Origin: Escherichia phage UP30
Reading direction: 5' to 3' (one strand)
Sequence record: OX638287
DNA: 49,834 bases
Under the pieces are notes generated by a model. It had not been told where the DNA came from, ran no database searches, and saw only the letters and a list, made by a program, of their open reading frames with translations. Made by a program: the position numbers and the translations under genes. Shown here piece by piece: positions 3,214 to 49,834 of the stretch. Every line of letters starts with the position of its first letter. The first letter of the stretch is position 1.

Positions 3214-3720
3214 ATGTTGAAATTAGAAGATGTTAAATTCCCGATCAAATTTATCAGCATTGGCTGCGGTGAAATTACGTTCACCAATGAAGATAAGGGC
3301 ACCTGGGCCACTGAGGAAGTGTCTCAGCTTAAGTTGGAGTGGTTTATTGCACGGCATAACGAAGTAAACAAGGAAAATTCACCAAATAAGGACTACCACT
3401 ACATTATGAGTGACGCTCAGGATTCGTACAGCGTGTATGATAATTGGAAGTTGGAAGGTTCCATATTCAACGGTGTAAAACCAGAAATCAAGCCGACGCT
3501 ACAATGCACTCAGATCGAGAACATGCCATTGAGCGCCACACTAAAAGGTGTCCAGCTTGATAGCAAATCCTGGATTGAAATTACCGCCACACCGAAAACC
3601 ATTGAGGTGCACAACGATATCATCACGCTGTTGCTGCATCACGGTGGATTCAAGCATAAGACGGTATCGGGTGAAATCAGCATCAAGCGCGGAACGCTTG
3701 TCCGCTACGAGGTGAAATAA
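3214..3720 (+). CDS. hypothetical protein (168 aa)
   Basis: ORF after promoter module, AAGAGGAAA RBS. Confidence 0.6.
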   Translation: MLKLEDVKFPIKFISIGCGEITFTNEDKGTWATEEVSQLKLEWFIARHNEVNKENSPNKDYHYIMSDAQDSYSVYDNWKLEGSIFNGVKPEIKPTLQCTQIENMPLSATLKGVQLDSKSWIEITATPKTIEVHNDIITLLLHHGGFKHKTVSGEISIKRGTLVRYEVK

Positions 3721-3869
3721 TGGTTACCTGGGTTTTGATTATCCTGATGAGCAATGGACCGGATCACGTATATATGAACAGCCAGCATTCATGCAATGAG
3801 GCTCGGGCAGTCATTGCAGATAACAAGCCGTTCGGATACGAAGTAAAAACTATGTGCGTTAAACGATAG
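3720..3869 (+). CDS. putative small protein (49 aa, MVTWVLIILMSNGPDH...)
   Basis: TAATG overlap with upstream stop, GAGGTG RBS, stop TAG embedded in box; hydrophobic N-terminus. Confidence 0.4.
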   Translation: MVTWVLIILMSNGPDHVYMNSQHSCNEARAVIADNKPFGYEVKTMCVKR

Positions 3870-5513: not shown

Positions 5514-5960
5514 ATGAAACACTTAATCTGTATTGAAGCACCTAACGATGAATACACTCTTCACGGCATTGGTATGTTCAAAGGTCACTATATGACCGCA
5601 AGCATTTACGACGCGCATCGAGGTGACGGCGATCTAATGATTAAGTCAAAAGAGGTTAATCCGTACATCATGCAGAATCTTGGTAATAACGAATATATGG
5701 CCTACGGATGCAATGCGGTTTACAAGCACATCAAGATCCGCAAGCGTGTAGTGCGTGCATTCAAGAAAATTGCAATGAAGCACTGGAAGATGAGCAAGAA
5801 GGACGCCGGACGCTGGGCGCGCAATGTTGCTGACTCATACTTCTACCGTAACGGTGAGTCCTGCTACTTCCTTATCGATGAACTTATGGAAAACTGCGGA
5901 GGCGACTTCAGCCAGATTAGCTTTGACGATTGGGCTAACTATGAGATTAGTTGCTGGTAA
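5514..5960 (+). CDS. hypothetical protein (148 aa)
   Basis: Track ORF starts at 5472 inside the hairpin; ATG 5514 follows GAGGAAACA RBS. Confidence 0.5.
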   Translation: MKHLICIEAPNDEYTLHGIGMFKGHYMTASIYDAHRGDGDLMIKSKEVNPYIMQNLGNNEYMAYGCNAVYKHIKIRKRVVRAFKKIAMKHWKMSKKDAGRWARNVADSYFYRNGESCYFLIDELMENCGGDFSQISFDDWANYEISCW

Positions 5961-15784: not shown

Positions 15785-15812
15785 TTGACGCTTTAACAAA
15801 AAGTGCTATTAT
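15785..15812 (+). promoter_or_regulatory. strong sigma70-type promoter of capsid gene (TTGACG-16-TGcTATTAT) with inverted box in spacer
   Basis: -35 15785-15790, -10 15807-15812; box ttaacaaaaagtgctatta 15793-15811. Confidence 0.55.
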
Positions 15813-19560: not shown

Positions 19561-19578
19561 TAACAAAAAGTGCTATTA
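19561..19578 (-). promoter_or_regulatory. dyad box, inverted relative to downstream tail chaperone gene
   Basis: taacaaaaagtgctatta; followed by CCAATCAGGAG leader. Confidence 0.45.
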
Positions 19579-30959: not shown

Positions 30960-32024
30960 ATGTTTAAAGTATTCACATCAAGCCAGCTTTCTAATGACGA
31001 GTATCATAGCAATGAAGGTTGGGCGGCAGAGTATGTAAGCGGATCTAGCCTTGCTGAAATCTATCAGACTTGTCCGGCTAACTGGAGATTCAAGAAGAAC
31101 GAAACGACTAAAGCGCTGGAGTTCGGTACTCAGTCGCATACAAACTTTGAGAGTAGCGATCTGTTTACTGCAACGTATGCGCGTTGTCCGTCTCCGGCAG
31201 AGTTCAAAGATCTGATTACGTCACAAGCCGCGCTGGCTGCAAAATTAAAATCTTTCGGCCTGAAAGGTACATCCGGTAAGCAGTACCCGGACCTCATCAA
31301 AATGATGGTTGATTGCGGTGAAGATCTCAATGTTCAATATCTGATTGAACTGATTGCTGAAGCTGAGGCGCGTGCTGAAGGAAAGCAACTGGTTGACGCT
31401 GATAAATATGATGCCTGTATGAAGATGAGAGCCATCCTTGAGCAAAATCCCGATCATGAAGCGTGCATCAATAGCGAGACGGCCCAGCGTGAGATCTCAA
31501 TCTTCGGTGAGATATCCGGCGTAAAGGTTAAAGTTCGACTTGACCATTTGGACTATAAAGAGAATGTTCCAGGTCGTGTGCTGACTGGTTACGATGAGAA
31601 TGGCGATCCGGTATTCGAAGACGTGATTTTTCCTGAAGCACTGATTATCACCGACTTCAAAACAACTATGAGCGCTAACCCGTTAGAGTTCCCGAGACTG
31701 GCATACAATCACGGCTATTACCTGAAAATGGCATTGCAGCACGACCTGCTGCGACGTGCAATCCAGGCTGGCGCTTTTGAGGGTAACTTCCCGGAAGATA
31801 TCCCGATCGTAGTTCGATTACTGGCGCAGGAGAAAAAAGAGCCTTACATCGCCCTTGCTTACCGCATGACTATGGAGCAAATCAGGATCGGGCGTAGTCA
31901 GTATGTTAGCGTTGTCCACACCTACAAGGCTTGTTCTGAGATGGACGTTTGGCCCGGATACGCTGGCGACGCAAGCGAGATCGAACTTGAAACGCCGTCA
32001 TGGGTACGCTATCAAAACAAGTAA
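30960..32024 (+). CDS. recombination exonuclease (PD-(D/E)xK, YqaJ/RecE-like)
   Basis: ITDFKT motif; first gene of exo-Erf-SSB module; canonical promoter upstream. Confidence 0.55.
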   Translation: MFKVFTSSQLSNDEYHSNEGWAAEYVSGSSLAEIYQTCPANWRFKKNETTKALEFGTQSHTNFESSDLFTATYARCPSPAEFKDLITSQAALAAKLKSFGLKGTSGKQYPDLIKMMVDCGEDLNVQYLIELIAEAEARAEGKQLVDADKYDACMKMRAILEQNPDHEACINSETAQREISIFGEISGVKVKVRLDHLDYKENVPGRVLTGYDENGDPVFEDVIFPEALIITDFKTTMSANPLEFPRLAYNHGYYLKMALQHDLLRRAIQAGAFEGNFPEDIPIVVRLLAQEKKEPYIALAYRMTMEQIRIGRSQYVSVVHTYKACSEMDVWPGYAGDASEIELETPSWVRYQNK

Positions 32025-32026
32025 AC

Positions 32027-32074
32027 GGCACAAATAGCTAAACAAGTAATTAATGAGGTGTTATAATGCACCTC
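32027..32074 (+). promoter_or_regulatory. degenerate promoter module upstream of erf
   Basis: ggcacaaatagctaaac; hairpin gaggtgTTATAATgcacctc. Confidence 0.45.
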
Positions 32075-32098
32075 GTACACCAATCAGGAGAAGTTAAG

Positions 32099-32746
32099 AT
32101 GCAATTATCACCAGAAACCAACGAAATCCTTCCTGCACTGTTTAACGCTCGCAACAAATTCGCTAAAGCAAAGAAGGATGCTAAAAACAATCACCTGAAA
32201 AATTCATACGCAACGCTTGATGCAATGATGGCGGCAGTAAGTCCTGCGTTAACCGACAACGATATCATGATTCTGCAATCAATGCTGGACACCAGTACAG
32301 AAACGACATTCCATCTTGAGACTATGCTGATTCACAAATCAGGGCAGTGGGCCAAATTCTTCATGATGATGCCGATTGCAAAACGAGATCCGCAAGGCGT
32401 AGGTTCTGCAATGACGTATGCGCGACGTTACTCTCTCGCGGCGGCGCTTGGAATTAGCCAGAGTGATGACGACGCGCAGCTTGCGGTGAAATCTGTCAAG
32501 GATTGGAAAAAAGAACTTGATTCGTGTGAAGATATCGAATCACTGAAAGAGGTATGGGCTAACGCTTACCGCCAGACGGACACGGCAAGCAAGTCAATCA
32601 TTCAGGATCACTACAACGCACTGAAGGCTAAGTTTGAGATCGGAAAGGCTCGCGGCATTCGCCCGGCGCAACCGGAACAGAAAAAACAGGTTGAAGCAAC
32701 AAGCGCGAAACCTGTACAATCTCAATCAATCACCAATTTCGAATAA
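32099..32746 (+). CDS. erf: Erf-family single-strand annealing protein
   Basis: YATLDA and MTYARRYS motifs; ATG 32099 after CCAATCAGGAG leader. Confidence 0.65.
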   Translation: MQLSPETNEILPALFNARNKFAKAKKDAKNNHLKNSYATLDAMMAAVSPALTDNDIMILQSMLDTSTETTFHLETMLIHKSGQWAKFFMMMPIAKRDPQGVGSAMTYARRYSLAAALGISQSDDDAQLAVKSVKDWKKELDSCEDIESLKEVWANAYRQTDTASKSIIQDHYNALKAKFEIGKARGIRPAQPEQKKQVEATSAKPVQSQSITNFE

Positions 32747-32793: not shown

Positions 32794-33207
32794 ATGCATA
32801 TTATCACTGGCGAGATCCGAAAAGAACCTAAGATTCTTGAACGTAACGGAGGCAATACTTATATTATTGAACTGGCAGAGAGTTACAAGCCGCGTGATGG
32901 CGATCGAGAATACACCAACTATACATTCTTTTTCAGCGATGGTGGGAAGCCCGGACTTGCTGATTGGTATCGTGAAGCGTTCCAGGTTGGTCGCGTCGTA
33001 TCAGTATCGTGCGAGACGTTGAAGATCTCATCCCGCGAGCACAACGGAACGGTTTACAATTCATTGCAGGCGGCTGATTTTCCTAAGTTGATATTCAGCC
33101 AACGAGGACAAAGCAACCAACAACGAGCGCCACAGCAACAACAGCGAACGCAATCACATCAACAGCCAAATCCTCAATCAACTTTCGACGATGATATCCC
33201 GTTCTAA
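32794..33207 (+). CDS. ssb: single-stranded DNA-binding protein
   Basis: Gln/Pro-rich tail ending DDDIPF; position after Erf. Confidence 0.8.
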   Translation: MHIITGEIRKEPKILERNGGNTYIIELAESYKPRDGDREYTNYTFFFSDGGKPGLADWYREAFQVGRVVSVSCETLKISSREHNGTVYNSLQAADFPKLIFSQRGQSNQQRAPQQQQRTQSHQQPNPQSTFDDDIPF

Positions 33208-35098: not shown

Positions 35099-35122
35099 AT
35101 AAAAAACCGCCCGAAGGCGGTT
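35099..35122 (-). terminator. intrinsic terminator after primase (minus strand)
   Basis: ccgcc-cgaa-ggcgg with A6 on plus strand = U-run on minus. Confidence 0.6.
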
Positions 35123-36056
35123 AGAGTAGGTCACTTGCTGAGAATAATTTGGCTTGCATTCCTGAACGGTATCCTCCAGGGTTAGGGATGATTATTTTTA
35201 ACTGCCTGTCGTCTGCCATATACAAAGTTTCTTTGTCAGATGGTTCGCACGCCACCCTTACCTCCCGATCCCCTTTGTATCTGTACGCAACCATTTCTAG
35301 GTTTTCAGGAGTAAAGCAGGCCCATACCTCTTGCTTTGTATGAAATGCAATATGTTGAGCATCAATCCAGTTTAGACACAAGTAGATCGCCTTCTCAGTT
35401 TTACCAGTCACGGCAACCGAGCAACTTGTGTATTTCTTCGCGTAAAATGATTCCCTTCCCTCTTCATCAATAATCAAAATATTGCAAAACTCGTCATCAA
35501 GCCCATCGTCATGCACAAGTTGACACGGGATAGTGTGAAATACTGACTCACCGCCATCCTCGCGACGTTTTACGCCTACGTCGAATGATTCAGTGGGTAG
35601 TGACTCAAACATACTTAGAGGCGTGTTTACGCGCTTCTCTGTGCGCTCCATAACTTTCATCACTGCATCATGGTCTGCCATCATAACATTTACGCCAGCT
35701 ACCGGAGTGCGGCGTGCTTTTTTGTTTGCCTTGACAATGTACTCCTGCGGAACCTTACCGAGAAATCTCCCCAGGATGTTTATGCATTCACTGTACGGCA
35801 TACCAGTTAATTTCATCAACCAGCCGATCCCGGAGTCGTTGCCGCATGAGTTGCAGATCGCGCCGCCGTCGCCCGGAGTATTCAAGTTATCAGTCCAACG
35901 AAAACGGTCCTTGCCGCCGCAGTTAGGGCAAGGTTGGTGCTTCTTGTTGAAAACCTCGTTAGGCAATCCGCAAACAGACTGGAATGCATCACGCCATAAC
36001 CCCTTCATATACGGCAATACGTCCTCTTTCTGAAACATCATAAATTCTTCGTTCAC
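35121..36056 (-). CDS. DNA primase (zinc-binding, putative)
   Basis: CPNCGGKDRFRW...CNSC zinc-finger motif; GTG 36056 or ATG 36041, start uncertain. Confidence 0.55.
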   Translation of the reverse strand: MNEEFMMFQKEDVLPYMKGLWRDAFQSVCGLPNEVFNKKHQPCPNCGGKDRFRWTDNLNTPGDGGAICNSCGNDSGIGWLMKLTGMPYSECINILGRFLGKVPQEYIVKANKKARRTPVAGVNVMMADHDAVMKVMERTEKRVNTPLSMFESLPTESFDVGVKRREDGGESVFHTIPCQLVHDDGLDDEFCNILIIDEEGRESFYAKKYTSCSVAVTGKTEKAIYLCLNWIDAQHIAFHTKQEVWACFTPENLEMVAYRYKGDREVRVACEPSDKETLYMADDRQLKIIIPNPGGYRSGMQAKLFSASDLL

Positions 36057-36661: not shown

Positions 36662-38680
36662 GTGACAATGAACATCAAAAAGCAGATTGCATTACTTGGC
36701 GAGGACTACATAAAACGCACTCAGGAGCGATTCACTGTTGGTGAGGTCGTTCCGTATCCGTATCAGGTTGTTGCTTATGCTGAGATAGCGAAGCGCCTGT
36801 CAAATTATGATCATCCATTCTTCGTTAAAGCGTCAGTATCTGCGGGTAAGACAATCATTTTTGCTATGGTTGCAAAACAGTGTCAGAAAATGGGGTTAAA
36901 AATGCTTGTGCTGGCACGCCAGGGTGAGATTGTCGATCAGGATAGCGAAGAGATCGACAACTTCGGTGTGACTAACTCTATCTTCTCAGCGTCACTTGGA
37001 ATAAAATCTTGCTACTTCCCGATCGTGGTTGGCTCTGAGGGTACTGTTGCAAACGGCCTCAATAATGAGTTGGCTGATTTTGTCCCGCATGTAATAGGGA
37101 TCGACGAATGTCACCAGGTGGATTGGGAAGACCTCGCGCAAGCAATCGAAGGAAAGGAAACGATTGAGCAGATGAGGGGGGAGAAAGGGAAAGTTATCAT
37201 GGAAGGGGAGATTCCTCTGATTGGTAATGATGGTAAGCCTCTTCTCGGAACTAAGCGAAGCCAGTACACGATCGTTATCATGGAGATGATGCGTCGCTGT
37301 AAAGAGGTTCACGGGCATGACCTAAGAATATTTGGTATGACGGGATCTGAATTTCGCGGCGTTGTTCCTATTCTTGTTGAGAACCCAAAGGCGTTAGGAT
37401 TCTGGCGTGAGCGCGTTACTGATATTGACACAAACTACCTCATTGAGTTTGGTTCTGTCGTTCCGACGATATTCGGTTCAACTGACGGGGTTCATTACGA
37501 TCTGGATAAGTTCAAGGCGTCGAGCGAGGACGGCGTGCAGGACTTTACAGAGAAAGATATGAAGGCGATGGAAGATGAAATCCTTCATGACAAATCTCTG
37601 ACTCAGCGAATCATGCAAATGGTCGCCAAAAAGGCTGAAGAACGCAACGCTGTTTTGATTACATGTGCCGGGGTTCGTCACTGTAAAGAGGCGGCGGCGG
37701 CACTTCCTCCGGGAAGCACCTATGCAATCATCACTGGAGATACAGACACCAAAACTCGCAAGAAGATTCTGGACGATGTGAGGGCCGGGAAGATTAAATA
37801 CACCTTTCAGGTAATGGCTCTCACGACTGGCGTTAACGTTCCAAATTGGGATTTCAGCGTCATACTTCGTAAGATAGGATCACTCACGCTGTTGATTCAA
37901 CTTTTGGGTAGGGGTATGCGACTGCTTAAATCATGGCAGGTAGCTGAAGGAATGGTCAAGCAAGATCATCTTGTATGGGATTTCGCTGGCACCATGGATG
38001 AGTTAGGCCAACTTTATTTCGATCCGATACTTGAGCAGGCTCAATTCCAGAAGCGTTTTGAAAACGGCAAAGACCCGAAAACGTGTCCGAAGTGTGGTTG
38101 CGTAAATAGCTTCTACGCTCGCCGATGCGTTAACGTTATCGACGGTGAGCGTTGTGATCATTTCTGGACTTCTCAGATTTGCGAGGACCAGGTGGATGAG
38201 CGTACCGGGAAAATCATTGTTAAAGGATGTGGTGCAGAGAATGACGTTGTTGCTCGCGTCTGCCGTTGCTGCGATGTTTCGCTTGTCGATCCTAACCTGA
38301 AGTTGTCAGGTAAAGCGTACACCAAGAATGACTGGTACGAGGTCAAGAATTTTGAGGTAACTCTAACCAAAAACCAAAAGGGCGTTATATACAAATACAC
38401 ACTGATTAACGATGATGGCGATGAGTTCAAGGCGTATGAAAAATTCTTCCCTGAGTCCGACTCTAAGATTTGCGGTACGCTATGGAAAACGAAGGGTGTA
38501 TTGCCTCATGTGTCAGATCCTAAAATGCGTCGCTACTTTATCGGAATGAAGAACGCCATCAAGATCGTGCAGTACTCGCATCATATCGCTCATCCGGTAC
38601 GTGTCACACACCGACGCAACCAGAAGAAGGAAGATATTATTTCACGTAAAGATTTCGGTATGGAGGATATCCCACAATGA
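36662..38680 (+). CDS. SF2 helicase with C-terminal zinc ribbon
   Basis: Walker A SAGKT, DECH box, CPKCGC...C-rich C-terminus; start may be ATG 36668. Confidence 0.75.
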   Translation: MTMNIKKQIALLGEDYIKRTQERFTVGEVVPYPYQVVAYAEIAKRLSNYDHPFFVKASVSAGKTIIFAMVAKQCQKMGLKMLVLARQGEIVDQDSEEIDNFGVTNSIFSASLGIKSCYFPIVVGSEGTVANGLNNELADFVPHVIGIDECHQVDWEDLAQAIEGKETIEQMRGEKGKVIMEGEIPLIGNDGKPLLGTKRSQYTIVIMEMMRRCKEVHGHDLRIFGMTGSEFRGVVPILVENPKALGFWRERVTDIDTNYLIEFGSVVPTIFGSTDGVHYDLDKFKASSEDGVQDFTEKDMKAMEDEILHDKSLTQRIMQMVAKKAEERNAVLITCAGVRHCKEAAAALPPGSTYAIITGDTDTKTRKKILDDVRAGKIKYTFQVMALTTGVNVPNWDFSVILRKIGSLTLLIQLLGRGMRLLKSWQVAEGMVKQDHLVWDFAGTMDELGQLYFDPILEQAQFQKRFENGKDPKTCPKCGCVNSFYARRCVNVIDGERCDHFWTSQICEDQVDERTGKIIVKGCGAENDVVARVCRCCDVSLVDPNLKLSGKAYTKNDWYEVKNFEVTLTKNQKGVIYKYTLINDDGDEFKAYEKFFPESDSKICGTLWKTKGVLPHVSDPKMRRYFIGMKNAIKIVQYSHHIAHPVRVTHRRNQKKEDIISRKDFGMEDIPQ

Positions 38681-39160: not shown

Positions 39161-39874
39161 ATGAAAGACTTTAATGACATTGAAACTATCGACTTTGCAG
39201 AAACTGGTTGCTCATTCACTCGCGAAGCAATAGCATCAGGCGGTTATTATCAGGCATTGAAAACGCCAACCTGTAAAGAAATCTCCGGTCGTCGATATAA
39301 GGGAACAAATACGCCTGACGCAGTTCGTGATTTATGGTCTACCCCACGAGAGGTTATTGCATACCTTGAGGGTCGTTACGGAAAATACGATCTCGATGCT
39401 GCGGCAAGCGAAGAAAATAAAGTTTGCGAGAAGTTTTATTCTCAGGAAACAAACTGCTTAAAACGTTGGTGGGGTAAGAGCAAGCACGTTTGGTTAAATC
39501 CTCCTTACAGCCGCCCTGATATATTCGTCAAAAAGGCGATTGAGCAAATGGAGCACAACAATCAGATCGATATGTTGTTACCTGCCGATAATTCGACGGC
39601 GTGGTTTACTGAGGCTCGACAGCACGCGGCTGAAATTATCTGGATTGAAGCGGATTTGACTGAAGATATCGACGGTAACGAGTATGCTCGATCCGGTCGC
39701 CTGGCCTTCATATCCGGTGAAACTGGAAAGGCGGTTGACGGTAATAACAAAGGTTCGGTAATTTTCATTATGCGCGAACTGAAAGAAGGTGAGGTTCAAC
39801 AGACCCACTACATTCCAATCACAAGCATTTGCCCTTCGGTGAAGAACAAACGAGCAAAAGTGAGGAAAGTATGA
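39161..39874 (+). CDS. dam: DNA N6-adenine methyltransferase (phage Dam-like)
   Basis: YDLDAAAS and NPPYS motifs. Confidence 0.7.
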   Translation: MKDFNDIETIDFAETGCSFTREAIASGGYYQALKTPTCKEISGRRYKGTNTPDAVRDLWSTPREVIAYLEGRYGKYDLDAAASEENKVCEKFYSQETNCLKRWWGKSKHVWLNPPYSRPDIFVKKAIEQMEHNNQIDMLLPADNSTAWFTEARQHAAEIIWIEADLTEDIDGNEYARSGRLAFISGETGKAVDGNNKGSVIFIMRELKEGEVQQTHYIPITSICPSVKNKRAKVRKV

Positions 39875-43694: not shown

Positions 43695-44102
43695 TCAAAT
43701 TCTTCTTTCGTAAGCTGGAGCCTTGCGCACAATTCGACGTTCCGATCTATCAACGTTTCTACGTTCGCTAAACAAGTCTTCATCACTCATTTCTCCAATG
43801 TGCATCATTTCCCATGTATATCGATTGTTGTAGCCATCAATACACATCAGCTTCATCATTACCGGGCGCTTAATCTTTCCCTTGCACCAGTAAAATCCAT
43901 CTTTGCAATCAAGATAACCCTCAGTTACACAGCGTGAGCAAAACTCCTTAGATAGCGCGCTTGTAAATTCACGGCGAGTCATCCCGGCGGCCTTAGCGAA
44001 TCGCTCACTTTCCTTGTGGGCGTATATAAATTTCGCTATGTGCTGTCGGGTGTATTTGTCGTATCCTTCGCAGAACCGGAACAGATCTAAAAGAAGAAGC
44101 AT
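43695..44102 (-). CDS. hypothetical Cys-rich protein (135 aa)
   Basis: Track ORF, start 5 nt after upstream stop; C-terminal extent uncertain because of overlap with 43583-43786. Confidence 0.4.
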   Translation of the reverse strand: MLLLLDLFRFCEGYDKYTRQHIAKFIYAHKESERFAKAAGMTRREFTSALSKEFCSRCVTEGYLDCKDGFYWCKGKIKRPVMMKLMCIDGYNNRYTWEMMHIGEMSDEDLFSERRNVDRSERRIVRKAPAYERRI

Positions 44103-44106
44103 ATAA

Positions 44107-45675
44107 TTAACCCATCAGTCGAGGATTGATGAAAACAATATCATCAATGCGGCAAGTGTAGTTCATCTCTTCGAGCGTGATCAGCAGACTGTCGATTCGC
44201 TCAGCTACCTTCTGCTGACCGTTGAACGGAGTAACGTTCCGACACTTCGCTACAATGCTATGAATCGGTGCGCGGCCTTTGTTCTTCTTCGCGATCTCAG
44301 TGATAACATCAATCAGTTTACGGGATTCAGCCTCATCACCAGCATATCCGGCAGCACTGGCAGAAGAAAGATAAGTCCTGGAAAGCTCATTGAAAATCAT
44401 AATCGCTTCCTGCATTGTTTCGAGATCAATCTCACGATTAGCTCGGTTCGGTGATTCACCCTCCCAATTCTTGATCGTGTGAAGAACTGAGGCGATACGC
44501 AGAGCGTGCTTATCGAACTTTCCGAGATGACCGCGCAGCATTGAGTGAGAGTATTTCCCCCCGGCGGCGAAATCCGGTTCCATAGCCTGACGCGCCAGGT
44601 TTAATTCACGCATAGCATTACGGCTTACAGAGAGAACAACGTTTTCCTCCTTCATGATGTTATGCACGAGTCGATAATATTTGCTAACCAGTCCGCGATC
44701 GACTTCCTTATACAGTGCATCACCATTTTCATCGCACAGAATACGAGTACCTAAAAGCGGTTCCTCACGAACTAACAAGAAGCGCTCAGATACACCGATA
44801 CCTCGTTGGCCTGCGTCCATGATACCCTTGATTGTTTCATCCTGAGCAATTACGCAGATCGAACCTACCGGGCACAGGGACAAGTTATTGTCCTGGTTGG
44901 ATCGAGCGACCTCCATGTGGTTTTTATCCCACGCCTTAAGGATAAGTTCACTGTTGGATTTCTTATCTGAACCTCCATACGTCAGTCCAAGCAATGTATT
45001 GATTGCCGTTGCTTCATCAGAGATTACGGAGAAGTGACCTTGAACAGCCGCCACTTTCGCCAGACCTTCGGGTGTAGGATCTGATACCGCGAAAACAATA
45101 TCAGCCATCTTCTTGATCTTCTCTTCCAGTTTCTCTTTGTCTTCGTACAGAGCCGCAGTCGTGTTACCCTTCTGGTCGTTCTTGATTTCCTTCTCAACCT
45201 GACGTAGCTGACTGGTTAAACGGATACGCTCCTTTTTGCGTTCTTCATTCAGTCGCTGAATCTCCGCGCGCATAGGAGTAATTGCCGCTGAGTTAATCGC
45301 TGATTTACCCGTTGACGGCGGCTGACTGATTACCATATAAAGCGCGGTCGGTTGTTCTTCGCCGTGATATTGCACCCAAAACTTCCCGAGCATCGCGGCT
45401 GAGATGCAACCGATGAAATGAGCGTACGCAGACGAAACCGGGAACTGAACTGACTCAGCCTTCGCCTTTGCATATTCGAATACCAGGTTATCGCCACCTA
45501 ACGAAATCAGCGGGAACTTATCGTTGCCGCTATTGATATCGATCGGGTCTTGCCAAAACGAAACTGAATCCCCATAACTGTTTTCACGAATTGCGATCGC
45601 CACCGGATTAACTCCAGTGCTATTGGCGATCTCAATAATCTGTTGGTAATTAAGTTTTGGCTTAATATTAAACAT
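44107..45675 (-). CDS. P-loop NTPase, probable replication-associated ATPase/helicase
   Basis: Walker A PPSTGKS, Walker B-like CVIAQDE; ATG 45675 after AAGGAG (track ORF starts 45738). Confidence 0.55.
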   Translation of the reverse strand: MFNIKPKLNYQQIIEIANSTGVNPVAIAIRENSYGDSVSFWQDPIDINSGNDKFPLISLGGDNLVFEYAKAKAESVQFPVSSAYAHFIGCISAAMLGKFWVQYHGEEQPTALYMVISQPPSTGKSAINSAAITPMRAEIQRLNEERKKERIRLTSQLRQVEKEIKNDQKGNTTAALYEDKEKLEEKIKKMADIVFAVSDPTPEGLAKVAAVQGHFSVISDEATAINTLLGLTYGGSDKKSNSELILKAWDKNHMEVARSNQDNNLSLCPVGSICVIAQDETIKGIMDAGQRGIGVSERFLLVREEPLLGTRILCDENGDALYKEVDRGLVSKYYRLVHNIMKEENVVLSVSRNAMRELNLARQAMEPDFAAGGKYSHSMLRGHLGKFDKHALRIASVLHTIKNWEGESPNRANREIDLETMQEAIMIFNELSRTYLSSASAAGYAGDEAESRKLIDVITEIAKKNKGRAPIHSIVAKCRNVTPFNGQQKVAERIDSLLITLEEMNYTCRIDDIVFINPRLMG

Positions 45676-45696
45676 CACAATGAACTCCTTAGTTGA

Positions 45697-45750
45697 CGGT
45701 GTAAATGATACACCGCCAATGGTACACGCGTTTTGCAAAAAGTGCTATTA
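45697..45750 (-). promoter_or_regulatory. promoter module (minus strand)
   Basis: Minus-sense tagcactttttgcaaaac; hairpin with TATCAT; AAGGAG. Confidence 0.5.
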
Positions 45751-45751
45751 G

Positions 45752-46168
45752 TTATAAGTATTTGGCCTCAAAGGTTGTGCCGTCCGCGATGCTGAATCCA
45801 ACCTCTTCGCGAAACAGCGTCCAGCGATATCCATCCTCATCAAAGATGTAGCCAGCCACTCCACCAAGCGCACGACCGCTTTCCACCTGGTAGCGCTTTC
45901 CAACCTTGAATGATTTTTTCATGGGGTTGCGATGTTCAAGCCCGGTGCACTTTAGCGTCTTGGTTTTAAGTTCAGTGAACTTCGCGAAGTAGATTTCATC
46001 AGATCCGTGAATCTGTAATTCATCGTGTTTCTCAAGTTTTAAATACTTTCCGCATTTTAATTTAATTTCGCGAGTTCCGTCGTAACGCTCACGACCTTTA
46101 TACAGATTGTTTACTTCGAAGCCTGTGATTTTTTCTGCGGAAGTGCATTTCAGTTTGATGGATTTCAT
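45752..46168 (-). CDS. hypothetical protein (138 aa)
   Basis: ATG 46168 after CCAATCAGGAG leader and promoter module. Confidence 0.5.
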   Translation of the reverse strand: MKSIKLKCTSAEKITGFEVNNLYKGRERYDGTREIKLKCGKYLKLEKHDELQIHGSDEIYFAKFTELKTKTLKCTGLEHRNPMKKSFKVGKRYQVESGRALGGVAGYIFDEDGYRWTLFREEVGFSIADGTTFEAKYL

Positions 46169-46199
46169 TGCGCTCACTCCTGATTGGTTTTCTTGAATA

Positions 46200-46256
46200 A
46201 GGCCACTTTATCAAATGACCTTACGGCAATATTAACAAATCGTGCTATTTACCAGG
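46200..46256 (-). promoter_or_regulatory. promoter module (minus strand)
   Basis: Minus-sense tagcacgatttgttaat; aaggtcatTTGATAAAGTggcctt. Confidence 0.5.
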
Positions 46257-46458
46257 GAATATAATCTTCGTCGTCCTCATGAGTATCATCACCAGGTAAC
46301 TCAAAATTGGGATCGTATTCGCTTTCGGCATCCATATCCATATTTCCCAAAGCCTCGTCAAGCGTAATTTCTTTATATGCAACCTTGATACACCATTCAG
46401 CACCAAGCCCGGCATCAAGAGCGGCAAAATAACGAGTCCAGAAATTATCCTGTTCCAT
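46249..46458 (-). CDS. small acidic protein (69 aa) with SSB-tail-like C-terminus DEDYIPW
   Basis: ATG 46458 after GGAG; many Asp/Glu; stop embedded in box. Confidence 0.5.
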   Translation of the reverse strand: MEQDNFWTRYFAALDAGLGAEWCIKVAYKEITLDEALGNMDMDAESEYDPNFELPGDDTHEDDEDYIPW

Positions 46459-46462
46459 TAAA

Positions 46463-46687
46463 TTAACTCCATGAATTAATGTAAATTGAGTTAGCCTCAA
46501 GCGTTGCGCGGACGTCGGCATCTGTTGCATTTACTAAGCGCGAGCCTGGCGTGCTGCCAATAACGTTATTACCGTTGCGAGTTTTAGTTACCGTCATTGA
46601 AATAAAACCGGAAGACTTATCCATTTTAATAACTACACGACCTTTAGCGTTCAGGTGCTTGATGATATTCTCAACTTTAATGCTCAT
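46463..46687 (-). CDS. hypothetical protein (74 aa)
   Basis: ATG 46687 after promoter module and AAAGGA RBS. Confidence 0.5.
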   Translation of the reverse strand: MSIKVENIIKHLNAKGRVVIKMDKSSGFISMTVTKTRNGNNVIGSTPGSRLVNATDADVRATLEANSIYINSWS

Positions 46688-46715
46688 TTCTAATTCCTTT
46701 GTTTCGTTTGGTGTG

Positions 46716-46767
46716 GGAGTAATATATATCACTCCCGATTGTATGTCTTTAGCAATTCGTGCTATCA
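46716..46767 (-). promoter_or_regulatory. promoter module (minus strand)
   Basis: Minus-sense tagcacgaattgcta; gggagTGATATATAttactccc. Confidence 0.5.
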
Positions 46768-46908
46768 GTACTCAGAAATTACTTTGCACTCTTTGATTGT
46801 TCCACCCAAAACTACTTTCTGCATCATTGCTTTTTGGTGGCTATCGTAAACGCGAACATTTTTTACGCTATTAAATTTACCCGTATAGAAGGTGTGAATA
46901 TAAATCAT
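46765..46908 (-). CDS. putative small protein (47 aa)
   Basis: ATGA coupling with upstream stop; stop TGA abuts box; below ORF-track cutoff. Confidence 0.3.
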   Translation of the reverse strand: MIYIHTFYTGKFNSVKNVRVYDSHQKAMMQKVVLGGTIKECKVISEY

Positions 46909-47225
46909 TTTTTACCGTCCCACGTTTGATATGCTGTAACCAGGTTGATGCTATGGTCGAACTCGTCAATGCTCAGCGATCCGATTCGAACCAGTTCTTT
47001 GTCATGCTTAATATCAATCATCCGGCTATATGGATGACCTGGCACATATTTAAATAGTCTCTTGCTGTCGGCAATATCAGCGTTGATTCCATAGAATCGG
47101 CCTACTGCCGCCTTCACGCGTTCCATGATGTTTTTTTCGTGGATTGCAGCCGCGTTATTCAATGCCGCGACAGTGCTCCCGTTAATCTTCGGTGACTTGG
47201 TTGTGATCTTGTAAGTGTGGTTCAT
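46905..47225 (-). CDS. hypothetical protein (106 aa)
   Basis: ATG 47225 after GGGGGAATA RBS (in-frame within ORF 46905-47291). Confidence 0.5.
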   Translation of the reverse strand: MNHTYKITTKSPKINGSTVAALNNAAAIHEKNIMERVKAAVGRFYGINADIADSKRLFKYVPGHPYSRMIDIKHDKELVRIGSLSIDEFDHSINLVTAYQTWDGKK

Positions 47226-47241
47226 TATTCCCCCTAACCGT

Positions 47242-47442
47242 TCAGGATAGCTTTTGTGCTTCGTAAATGATAACAGGTTCAAGACGTTCAAGTCGAACGC
47301 GGAACGTGTTCATGAATCCTTCGTTGTTCTTCAGCGATTCGAAGGCGTCTGTAGCTTCGATTGCGCTATCCCCCATGTAGGCAACTACGCTCTTTTGCGT
47401 CTCTCGCGAGATCGCAACAACTCGGTAGATATAATCACTCAT
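47242..47442 (-). CDS. hypothetical protein (66 aa)
   Basis: ATG 47442 after AAGGAGG RBS. Confidence 0.5.
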   Translation of the reverse strand: MSDYIYRVVAISRETQKSVVAYMGDSAIEATDAFESLKNNEGFMNTFRVRLERLEPVIIYEAQKLS

Positions 47443-47806
47443 ACAATGCCTCCTTAACACGATCCGCAATGCAGGAGTTTACGGTGATTGAGTAGTTCGC
47501 CACTCCCCACAGTGCAATATTTCCTAACTCAGTGCGCATAGATGGATTGTTAAGCTGAATGATTGTTTCTCCAGTATCGTTATCGACGAAGCGAGATACT
47601 CCTAAATGGTCCACCACGCGCGTTACTCTGTTCACACACTCCATTGCATCACTTACACCATAATAGGCGCTCAGAGCGGCTCTCACAGCCTTCTCTTGCT
47701 TGTTGTAAATCTTGCGCGCGATGTTATCGATCGCTACGTGCTCTTTCTCGTCAGTCTGGATTGCCGTGCTTGCTGTGAAGTCCAGGTCAGTGAACTGCTT
47801 AAACAT
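47435..47806 (-). CDS. hypothetical protein (123 aa)
   Basis: ATG 47806 after full promoter module and leader. Confidence 0.55.
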   Translation of the reverse strand: MFKQFTDLDFTASTAIQTDEKEHVAIDNIARKIYNKQEKAVRAALSAYYGVSDAMECVNRVTRVVDHLGVSRFVDNDTGETIIQLNNPSMRTELGNIALWGVANYSITVNSCIADRVKEALYE

Positions 47807-47831
47807 GATTCTTTCCTCATTTGCTGTTGAT

Positions 47832-47880
47832 GGGATGACTATACCAGCCATCCCGGATGCGCGTTTAGCAATTCGTGCTA
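47832..47880 (-). promoter_or_regulatory. promoter module (minus strand)
   Basis: Minus-sense tagcacgaattgctaaac; gggatggcTGGTATAGTcatccc. Confidence 0.55.
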
Positions 47881-48216
47881 TTAAGCAATATCGAACTCAG
47901 CGGCATATGCTTCCTTGAAGCCAGCTTCACGCATGGTGCGCTTGCTGATTTTGCGCTGGAATTTGTACTGGCTGTTAGGCATAACCCACCAGAAGCAGGC
48001 AGTTTCACGAACGATTTCATATTTACCGTAACGGGTGAAGGTGTCGCGTTCCATATCCGGCTGATTTACACAGGTCAGGAATTTAGCTGCCTTGTCTTCA
48101 GTTTTGATTTCTTCCCACACGAAGGAATCCATACCGTTAACCTTGCAAGCTACCATGATGTACTCAACGCCGTTTTCGATTTTGATGATTTCGTTACCGC
48201 GATTTTCGTATTTCAT
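47881..48216 (-). CDS. hypothetical protein (111 aa)
   Basis: ORF after promoter module; stop overlaps next box. Confidence 0.55.
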   Translation of the reverse strand: MKYENRGNEIIKIENGVEYIMVACKVNGMDSFVWEEIKTEDKAAKFLTCVNQPDMERDTFTRYGKYEIVRETACFWWVMPNSQYKFQRKISKRTMREAGFKEAYAAEFDIA

Positions 48217-48249
48217 TTTCCTGTTCCTGATGTGTATCTCGTTTCGATG

Positions 48250-48298
48250 AGGTAATTATGCCAAATCACACCGATCGAGTTTTAACAAAAAGTGCTAT
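48250..48298 (-). promoter_or_regulatory. promoter module (minus strand)
   Basis: Minus-sense tagcactttttgttaaaac; ggtgtgatttgGCATAATtacctc. Confidence 0.5.
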
Positions 48299-48986
48299 TT
48301 GCGATCGCTTTGAAAAATCCCCTGGGTGATAGCGATCGTATCAGCTTGGTCTTTGCAGACTTGCCGCCCAGCTTGTTCTGCTGCGCAGAGTACCCGTCAG
48401 GCAGATTTACTGGTTTTCTCTCCGGCATGACAAAGTCATCCGAGGTCCACAGGCACGTCTTCTTCGGGTAAGCATCGCGCGGCGCAATATACATCGGGAA
48501 CCAGGGGTGTACGTCATTCTCCGGTAGATAGCCGCCATACTCCCAGGGGTCGAAAGTGTGGTCAGCTTTACGCCAGGCAGATGAAAGAACGCTCACCGGA
48601 TTCTCAATGATGTAAGTCACGCCCAGGCTATCGCCAATGTTCGCAGCAATCCGGGCGGTGGCAACAGCTTTCTCCTGGAATAGCGGATCACGTTCACGCT
48701 TGCTGGCAAAATGACGAGCGCCGCTAACAGCCAGGTCAGTGCACGGCGGGAATGCCATAATGAAATCCGGCTTGCCATACACACCCGCGATCGCATCTCG
48801 CTCGAACTTCTCACCAATGAAGACGTTCACATACTCAATATTCGGATGCTCCACCCGGGCATTGTGCTTTGCATAATCTCCGTGATCGGCTCCGTCAAAG
48901 TTGAAGCACATCACCTTATAGCCTTGCTTTGCCAGTTCATGACCAGCCAGGCCGGAACCGTCGAATAGTGACCAGATTAATTTCAT
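48282..48986 (-). CDS. DNA (cytosine-5)-methyltransferase-like protein
   Basis: LFDGSG (motif I-like), PPCTDLAVSG (Pro-Cys motif IV-like), IIENPV (ENV-like); ATG 48986. Confidence 0.5.
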   Translation of the reverse strand: MKLIWSLFDGSGLAGHELAKQGYKVMCFNFDGADHGDYAKHNARVEHPNIEYVNVFIGEKFERDAIAGVYGKPDFIMAFPPCTDLAVSGARHFASKRERDPLFQEKAVATARIAANIGDSLGVTYIIENPVSVLSSAWRKADHTFDPWEYGGYLPENDVHPWFPMYIAPRDAYPKKTCLWTSDDFVMPERKPVNLPDGYSAQQNKLGGKSAKTKLIRSLSPRGFFKAIANSTFC

Positions 48987-49022
48987 TTGTTGCATTCTCC
49001 TGATTAACCTTATCGCTTACCC

Positions 49023-49148
49023 TTATCGCTTACCCTGACCGTTGCAAGCCGGACACGTGATTCGCTGCATTGTCCAGACTCCAGTGAATAAAGGAACCAG
49101 GGTAAATCCACGACCAGCGCACTGACTACAAACCTGTTTAACTTTCAT
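49023..49148 (-). CDS. putative small zinc-ribbon protein (41 aa; CSQC...CPAC)
   Basis: ATG 49148 after CCAATCAGAAGAGGAAG leader, in-frame within ORF 49023-49217. Confidence 0.4.
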   Translation of the reverse strand: MKVKQVCSQCAGRGFTLVPLFTGVWTMQRITCPACNGQGKR

Positions 49149-49164
49149 TGCTGCTTCCTCTTCT

Positions 49165-49227
49165 GATTGGTTGATGTGATGAATCATACCCTGCCAACCT
49201 GGTCCAGTCGTTAGCAAAAAATGCTAT
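49165..49227 (-). promoter_or_regulatory. promoter module (minus strand)
   Basis: Minus-sense atagcattttttgctaac; TATGAT; CCAATCAGAAGAGG leader. Confidence 0.45.
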
Positions 49228-49413
49228 TCCAATAATTGCTTATTATTCCATCAATGCTGGAATAGGTGGAATAATTTTGATTCCGATTGATTGCAAATGA
49301 TGAAACATGATTATTGCATGGTGTGCAACAGTTGGTTGATTTATTGCTGAGATTACAATGATTGTGAGAGGGAGGATCTAGTGTTACCCGGTTCGCCTGG
49401 TAGTCATCTCCAT
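49228..49413 (-). ncRNA. candidate non-coding transcript between two minus-oriented dyad boxes
   Basis: No ORF >21 aa on either strand; bracketed by boxes; ATTCC/GGAAT repeat cluster. Confidence 0.2.
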
Positions 49414-49434
49414 TTTTAGCAAAAAGTGCTACCG
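49414..49434 (-). promoter_or_regulatory. dyad box without adjacent ORF
   Basis: Minus-sense tagcactttttgctaaaa; next 190 nt leftward have no ORF >21 aa. Confidence 0.4.
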
Positions 49435-49521
49435 ATTACACTTTAACTTGTCACTGCTGTAATATTTGTCTAGAATCACACTTGTGACAAAATTACGCAC
49501 TGTGACACCTCACAATATACA

Positions 49522-49552
49522 TATAGATATATGTATCTATATAATATATATA
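49522..49552. repeat. AT-rich palindrome TATAGATA-N4-TATCTATA and 18-mer tctatataatatatatag shared with 30596-30613
   Basis: Exact 18-mer at 49535-49552 and 30596-30613. Confidence 0.55.
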
Positions 49553-49834
49553 GTATTTTTTTTATTTATATATATAGATAATTATATTGTAATAATTGTG
49601 TATAGTTGTCTTACATTGTCTAGCGTACTGTTGGCATATTTCTATCTGCATGTTTATATATACAGTACTTTTTTGAGAGCTATATATTTCTATATGGACT
49701 CTAGACAGCTAGACAAATGTTACACGGCTTAAAATCGGCTTGCAGGCATTGACAACTCTACGTCGCGCTGTCACAATGGCAATTGTTGACACGTTATGAC
49801 GCCATTTACACGCAAATAGACAAAGAGGATATAT

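Follow-up and report, generated by a model that had tools for sequence, protein, structure and literature searches.

Here we describe gp6, a protein of 69 amino acids from a T1-like phage of Escherichia whose free carboxy-terminus resembles the tip by which bacterial SSB is held by its partner enzymes. We tentatively propose that gp6 is a mimic of this tip that docks onto SSB-partner enzymes, and that it would act as a tether rather than as a pure blocker. The stretch of DNA that was analysed, called the window throughout, comprises 49,834 nucleotides (Escherichia phage UP30, sequence record OX638287) and is a complete 49.8-kb genome of the genus Tunavirus in the family Drexlerviridae.

More than a dozen enzymes of replication, recombination and repair dock onto the end of the SSB tail, which is being pursued as a target for antibiotics. 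A docking motif of this type would be recognised by binding to the SSB-tip pocket that disappears when the last residue is deleted or when the proline is changed to serine (a change of the ssb-113 type), and the acidic residues beside the tip also matter for its binding. We know of no SSB that ends in tryptophan and, to our knowledge, no natural protein copies the SSB tip; when the literature was searched for phage SSB-tip mimics and for the tail strings, no natural protein other than SSB carrying an SSB tip was found. In E. coli SSB, the conserved tip is DDDIPF (PMC5872125). The pockets of ExoI and RecO tolerate a change from Ile to Leu and take bulkier terminal aromatics, with 4-CF3-Phe binding approximately 10-fold better; the proximal DFDD and distal DIPF segments each add to the binding of the SSB carboxy-terminus (SSB-Ct), and a second upstream aromatic raises the affinity of synthetic SSB-Ct mimetics (PMC10143822). 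Given this tolerance, tips such as YIPW or DFD...FPF would be plausible ligands.

The gp6 gene and its product

The gp6 gene lies on the minus strand and is the orthologue of gene 6 of phage T1 (ST6, YP_003939.1), with which its product is 90% identical. It belongs to phrog_9085, whose profile it matches over its full length (residues 1-69 of 69, E = 1.2e-44). The gene, its parts and its immediate upstream neighbour are as follows.

46249-46458, minus strand: gp6 coding sequence, 69 amino acids and the stop codon
46318-46458, minus strand: N-terminal module, residues 1-47, with the family pattern F/WxRxxxAxDAGL(N)xEWxxKVAxxExTLDEALGxMDMDxES
46276-46317, minus strand: acidic linker, residues 48-61, EYDPNFELPGDDTH, without predicted secondary structure
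46252-46275, minus strand: SSB-tip-like carboxy-terminus, residues 62-69, DDEDYIPW-COOH, whose YIPW hardly varies within the Tunavirus class
46467-46470, minus strand: ribosomal binding site of gp6, GGAG, within the last codons of gp5
46463-46687, minus strand: gp5, 74 amino acids, phrog_4344, basic (pI approximately 10, net charge +5), the next gene upstream of gp6 at 55 of 59 related loci

The translation of the gp6 reading frame is MEQDNFWTRYFAALDAGLGAEWCIKVAYKEITLDEALGNMDMDAESEYDPNFELPGDDTHEDDEDYIPW. We take the ATG at 46458 as the right start codon because GGAG lies 8 nucleotides upstream of it and because every homologue opens with M(E/K)QDNF, in agreement with this start. A longer version of 93 amino acids, starting at 46530, was ruled out since it overlaps the upstream gene. 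Comparison with four Tunavirus orthologues gave dN/dS values of 0.04-0.10; gp6 is a real gene on which strong purifying selection acts.

The product has a mass of 8.0 kDa and a pI of 4.05, as computed from the sequence, with 20 Asp or Glu residues against 3 Lys or Arg; of the acidic ones, 13 fall within residues 38-69, a stretch free of Lys and Arg, and the chain ends in DDEDYIPW. The original prediction of a small acidic protein of 69 amino acids with an SSB-tail-like end is thereby confirmed. Among the 78 non-overlapping open reading frames of the window, only gp6 and the phage SSB have a carboxy-terminus of the form [ILVMF]P[FWY]. The composition of the genome leads one to expect 0.010 IP[FW] ends per genome, and approximately 1e-5 per genome if at least four of the five preceding residues are to be acidic.

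Architecture and predicted structure

Members of the gp6 family share a common plan: an N-terminal module of approximately 47 residues, then a linker, then the carboxy-terminal tip. The module is the best-conserved part. Helices are predicted in it at residues 6-16, 20-27 and 33-37, followed by the alternating acidic and hydrophobic stretch GNMDMDAES, and ten positions are invariant in a family alignment of 36 sequences (A13, G17, L18, V26, L33, A36, G38, M40, E45 and S46). The linkers, at 24-38 residues, permit no alignment between subfamilies. An AlphaFold2 model built with the family alignment, of modest quality (pLDDT 63), has helices within residues 6-37 alone and leaves residues 38-69 without structure, so that about half of gp6 is predicted to be disordered. 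The DNA-like shape that structure prediction had been proposed to look for finds no support in the model, whose three short helices and lack of a rigid body speak against a rigid array of carboxylates, although gp6 may fold on binding.

Database comparisons for gp6 and 36 family members gave only scattered sub-threshold matches in Pfam (E <= 1), for example SbcC_Walker_B (E = 0.016, in five of the 36), and all of these were taken as chance. The family profile matched none of the PDB sequences, and Foldseek found no match of the model in the PDB at E <= 0.001, as expected given the pLDDT of 63. There is no OB fold and no SSB match for gp6 in Pfam or PHROGs, and with its three short predicted helices gp6 is not itself an SSB. 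Another small Drexlerviridae protein, the CapRel trigger Gp54(Bas11), was ruled out as an identity for gp6: it is a 66-residue beta-barrel with a structure in the PDB (CapRel-trigger paper), whereas gp6 is predicted to be helical and its profile matches no such PDB chain. We also rejected the name "putative cytosine DNA methylase" that several gp6 homologues bear in GenBank (for example at 3483-3722 of locus L004 and 5550-5759 of locus L001); these are proteins of 70-80 amino acids without methyltransferase motifs, and the name appears to have been carried over from a neighbouring gene.

Larger proteins from other phages contain the N-terminal module too, but there it is not accompanied by the tip. 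One of these (P0088; locus L072, 5001-5654) is a protein of 217 amino acids in which the gp6 module is joined to a zinc ribbon of the Mu gp6 type and which has no IPF tip; the metagenomic contig from which it comes is 54.6 kb long, encodes sheath and baseplate proteins and belongs to an unrelated, myovirus-like phage. The Pfam label "Phage_Mu_gp6" on this protein falls on its C-terminal zinc ribbon and not on the gp6 module. Since the module occurs fused elsewhere where the tip is absent, it behaves as an independent domain, presumably one for interaction. A different kind of joined reading frame occurs in Shigella phage vB_SsoS_008 (P0064; locus L012, 812-1108), where the C-terminal part of gp5 and the N-terminal part of gp6 share one coding sequence of 98 amino acids, with no tail; its most likely cause is a frameshift or a sequencing error rather than a natural fusion.

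The carboxy-terminal tip across subfamilies

The tip of gp6 is best read beside that of the SSB encoded by the same phage.

32794-33207, plus strand: phage SSB, 137 amino acids, phrog_44, ending in ...STFDDDIPF, the motif that gp6 resembles

The original prediction had the end of this SSB as DDDIPF, which is correct; these last six residues are identical to the tip of E. coli SSB. Only phrog_44 recognises the protein, and Pfam gives no SSB match for it even at E <= 1. In three other genera the last eight residues of SSB are DFDDDIPF throughout, and four Drexlerviridae genera were found to share the (M/I)DFDDDIPF end, so the phage SSB tip is constant among them.

A [IFLVM]P[FW] tip is kept in approximately 149 of 153 small members of the gp6 family, namely IPW in 66, FPF in 50, IPF in 20, another xPF in 7 and IPFW in 7. 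Measured against the SSB-Ct docking motif [IL]-P-F, gp6 of the window ends in I-P-W and thus shares the hydrophobic-Pro-aromatic pattern but not the exact last residue; the acidic residues that precede the tip in SSB have their counterpart in the D-D-E-D-Y ahead of IPW. Such an acidic run before the tip is confined to the Tunavirus class, where the mean net charge over tail positions -9 to -4 is -3.9. In the largest non-Tunavirus class, members end in DFDPxCxRCFPF, so that a zinc knuckle of the form CxC-x5-CxxC directly precedes FPF; here the net charge over the same positions is +1.3, with an Arg at -4, and the DFD element is retained upstream of the tip. One subfamily ends in KFDDGIPF, which is identical to MDFDDDIPF at six of nine positions and has its proximal Phe equally far from the end, while others end in LDDIPF or DDCIPF. 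Webervirus-type members end in CIPFW and two related loci in CVPFL, which means that in these members the Phe carboxylate is not free. With the tip kept in nearly all members despite linkers that cannot be aligned, and with KFDDGIPF and LDDIPF as near-copies of the SSB end, the resemblance to an SSB tail is stronger than it was when first noticed.

The class of tip follows the genus: IPW in Tunavirus, FPF in Tempevirinae-type loci and IPFW in Webervirus-type loci. Because the gp6 tip varies by genus against constant SSB tips in host and phage, this pattern would also fit a co-evolving partner encoded by the phage.

Distribution, gene order and the gp5-gp6 unit

The gp6 region of the window is 89-91% identical to that of Escherichia phages JMPW1 and phi2013, Shigella phages pSf-2 and Shfl1, and other Tunavirus. 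By tblastn, the gene is present in 458 phage records, which are of approximately 50 kb in the 60 with a listed length. The four matches examined are Drexlerviridae of Escherichia, Klebsiella and Citrobacter, with EF3-1 carrying no lineage in its record, and the names of other matches point to Shigella, Salmonella, Enterobacter and Cronobacter as hosts. No match was found in plasmids or in 185,579 representative bacterial genomes, and metagenome matches are nearly all fragments or Drexlerviridae-like contigs of approximately 50 kb. Close homologues (67-94% identity) all have the YIPW end; more distant members, at 35-55% identity, came from two successive profile searches, the first of them against 1.84 billion representative proteins. 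We found no paper on the gp6 family, and nothing relevant in the literature on gene essentiality in T1-like phages.

In 59 related viral loci the gene order is gp5-gp6-[methyltransferase-like]-gp7-DUF3987 helicase-gp10. The methyltransferase-like gene is directly downstream of gp6 in the non-Tunavirus loci (approximately 43 of 59); in Tunavirus-type loci, where it is found, it lies 2-3 kb upstream of gp6. Thus gp6 is a fixed syntenic core gene and not a variable accessory gene.

Its companion gp5 had been overlooked in the original prediction, which also did not notice that conservation within gp6 is highest in the N-terminal module. In every genus gp5 is basic (pI 8.5-11.6, net charge +2 to +8) and gp6 is acidic (net charge -6 to -18). 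The AlphaFold2 model of gp5 has an alpha-beta4-alpha fold (pLDDT 77), for which no informative structural neighbour was found. The TAA stop codon of gp5, at 46463-46465, is 4 nucleotides ahead of the gp6 ATG and the ribosomal binding site of gp6 lies inside the end of gp5; therefore, the two genes are translationally coupled.

A 13-nucleotide box, ATAGCACGAWTTG, occurs 21 times in the window against 3.1 copies expected, on the plus strand between 786 and 9101 and between 35041 and 42113, and on the minus strand at 15797-15809, at 19564-19576 and between 45736 and 48298. At most sites the box is at or just after a stop codon and is followed by TTG(C/T)TAAA, a variable hairpin, a ribosomal binding site and an ATG, with a -10-like element of the form TG-n-TATAGT in the loop or in the 3′ arm of the hairpin. 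From their sequence, these units look like promoters in which the -10 element is embedded in a hairpin, an unusual arrangement. Two of them flank the genes discussed here.

46715-46765, minus strand: promoter-like unit upstream of gp5-gp6, with the box ATAGCACGAATTG at 46753-46765 and the hairpin GGGAGTGATATATATTACTCCC at 46715-46736 containing a -10-like element
46199-46248, minus strand: next promoter-like unit, directly after the gp6 stop codon and before gp7, with the box ATAGCACGATTTG at 46236-46248 and a hairpin at 46199-46222

Since the boxes at 46753-46765 and 46236-46248 bracket gp5 and gp6, the two would form a two-gene unit that is co-transcribed. The original prediction had spoken of a box-driven leftward early block; the box is real, while early expression is deduced from the position of the block. 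An A+T-rich stretch (49300-49834 together with 1-520), in which both strands have several matches to sigma-70-like promoters, separates this leftward block (43695-49217, minus strand) from a rightward block that starts at position 1, and the window appears, from its sequence, to have been cut inside or beside a divergent early control region.

The replication, recombination and modification genes recognised in the window, besides SSB, are the following.

30960-32024: PD-(D/E)XK exonuclease
32066-32746: ERF-family annealing protein
35121-36056: primase
36662-38680: SF2 helicase
39161-39874: Dam methylase
44107-45738: DUF3987 helicase
48282-48995, minus strand: C5-methyltransferase-like protein, 237 amino acids, with motifs FDGSG, PPCTD and ENP; phrog_757, with a sub-threshold Pfam match (E = 0.23)

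No DNA polymerase is among the reading frames of more than 300 amino acids in the window, each of which can be assigned a structural or packaging role or one of the listed functions, and we take this to agree with what is known of T1. Just upstream of the methyltransferase-like gene, a small reading frame (49023-49217, minus strand) without a PHROG match contains CSQCAGRG and CPACNGQG, two CxxCxGxG motifs like those of a DnaJ-type zinc finger.

Discussion

From the anatomy of gp6, its conservation, its pairing with gp5 and the missing polymerase, all of which are observed, we infer the following binding steps and targets. gp6 would be a two-part early protein in which a small helical N-terminal module for interaction is joined, through a disordered acidic linker, to a free hydrophobic-Pro-aromatic carboxy-terminus that imitates the bacterial SSB tip (DFDDDIPF). 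This tip would dock in the pockets by which SSB-partner enzymes hold the SSB tail; candidates in the host are the chi subunit of Pol III, PriA, DnaG, ExoI, RecQ, RecO and RecG, and the recombination and replication proteins of the phage itself may be further partners. Acting as a tether, gp6 would hold a phage partner by its module, most likely gp5, while the tip recruits or sequesters an SSB-partner enzyme. Several considerations favour a tether over a free competitive plug: conservation is higher in the module than in the tail, the conserved basic protein gp5 is translated together with gp6, and an indiscriminate blocker of SSB pockets would harm the host-dependent replication of the phage itself. 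In a phage that has no polymerase and whose own SSB ends in DDDIPF, a second tip-bearing protein has obvious targets. The SSB tip is the model that we choose for the tail because the motif is strictly at the free carboxy-terminus, because it survives while the linker diverges beyond recognition, and because near-copies of DFDDDIPF recur in separate subfamilies. The positive charge before the tip in the FPF class and the IPFW ends mean, however, that the pocket need not be the canonical one for the SSB tip.

A more elaborate form of the proposal, which we think quite improbable, makes gp5 and gp6 together a split surrogate SSB. Here gp5 would sit on phage DNA or on a replication intermediate, and gp6 would bind gp5 by its module and display the tip, so that the DNA is marked for a host SSB-partner (such as PriA or the clamp-loader subunit chi) and the host replisome starts or restarts there.

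Perhaps the tip is instead a plug for a partner encoded by the phage, gp6 being a small structural or regulatory subunit of an early replication or modification module and its likeness to SSB convergent or incidental. We regard this main rival as somewhat unlikely, though several points speak for it: the class of tip tracks the genus while the SSB tips of host and phage stay constant, synteny is tight, with gp5 upstream nearly everywhere and the methyltransferase-like gene adjoining in the non-Tunavirus loci, the zinc-knuckle classes have no acidic run, some members end in IPFW or VPFL, and the N-terminal module is elsewhere fused to other domains with the tip absent. The candidates for such a partner would be gp5, the C5-methyltransferase-like protein, gp7 and the DUF3987 helicase. 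However, KFDDGIPF and LDDIPF resemble DFDDDIPF so closely that coincidence does not easily explain them, and in Tunavirus the methyltransferase-like gene is 2-3 kb away with the architecture of gp6 unchanged.

The original prediction had also offered that gp6 might be a DNA mimic against restriction or another nucleic-acid-sensing defence. In the manner of Ocr, ArdA or gp5.9, its negative surface would then fill the DNA site of a restriction enzyme, of RecBCD or of another such defence protein. The whole family is acidic (net charge -8 to -18, pI approximately 4.1), the gene is in a block of small early genes with methyltransferase genes adjoining, and the invariant G-D-M-D-M-D-x-E-S-E alternation, if it formed an extended strand, would set its carboxylates at approximately the spacing of phosphates. 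This reading has nevertheless fared poorly and we consider it very unlikely: half of the protein is predicted to be disordered, with no rigid body in the model, although folding on binding could still occur; what is conserved is mostly hydrophobic or small positions and the tip rather than an array of charges; the gene is a fixed core gene of hundreds of Drexlerviridae and absent from plasmids; and no similarity to known mimics was found in Pfam, PDB sequences or by Foldseek. Less probable still, to the point of being far-fetched, is a reading in which the tip copies DYLDIPAFL, the conserved C-terminal peptide of FtsZ, and gp6 stops cell division as a competitor for FtsA or ZipA. Early phage genes often encode inhibitors of division, and D-Y-I-P-W, C-I-P-F-W and C-V-P-F-L bear a loose likeness to D-Y-L-D-I-P-A-F-L, but the FtsZ peptide does not stand at the free carboxy-terminus, where the motif of the gp6 family always does, the spacing between Pro and Phe differs, and tails of the KFDDGIPF type are far closer to SSB.

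To return to the reading of gp6 as an SSB-tip mimic, the closest known system is SSB-Ct itself (...MDFDDDIPF-COOH). Both have a hydrophobic-Pro-aromatic motif at the exact free carboxy-terminus, preceded in the Tunavirus class by an acidic run and placed, according to the model, at the end of a disordered linker, so that gp6 is predicted to be built like an SSB in miniature, with a folded part, then a disordered linker, then the tip. The differences are that gp6 has no OB fold or ssDNA-binding domain, its folded part being a helical module of approximately 37 residues, that its terminal residue is Trp and that Tyr stands for Asp at -3; other subfamilies have a zinc knuckle before the tip or an extra residue after the Phe. 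A precedent for a phage protein other than SSB sharing an SSB-type tail and its docking site comes from T7, in which the SSB gp2.5 and the helicase-primase gp4 both have acidic, Phe-ended tails that bind the same sites on T7 DNA polymerase. The gp2.5 tail has been described in the DARNA preprint. The T7 tails are, however, carried by large enzymes and target the polymerase of the phage itself, whereas gp6 has 69 amino acids and its phage has no polymerase. Synthetic SSB-Ct mimetics that inhibit ExoI and RecO are likewise short acidic peptides ending in Ile/Leu-Pro-aromatic (PMC10143822), parallel to -YIPW and DFD...FPF; they are man-made with unnatural residues, whereas the gp6 tail is natural. 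The DNA mimics T7 Ocr, ArdA, T7 gp5.9, PBS2 Ugi and phi29 p56 resemble gp6 in being small, strongly acidic, early phage proteins, but they have compact folds or dimers with ordered arrays of carboxylates, unlike the half-disordered gp6 with its conserved hydrophobic positions and tip. Among these systems, gp6 may, on our still tentative reading of its function, best be placed as a case of motif mimicry, in which a small early phage protein copies an interaction hub of its host.

If the tip binds a phage partner instead, gp6 would be an ordinary small subunit of an early module. Were gp5 and gp6 to form a split surrogate SSB, this would be the first natural stand-alone SSB-tip mimic, and it would show viral hijacking of the SSB hub by a new route. 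If gp6 does copy the SSB tip, it would show how a phage without a polymerase steers or disarms the SSB hub of its host, and the evolved variants of the tip, such as YIPW and the zinc knuckle with FPF, may serve as leads for selective inhibitors. It would also give a function to a gene of hundreds of T1-like phages, many of which are therapeutic candidates against E. coli, Shigella and Klebsiella.
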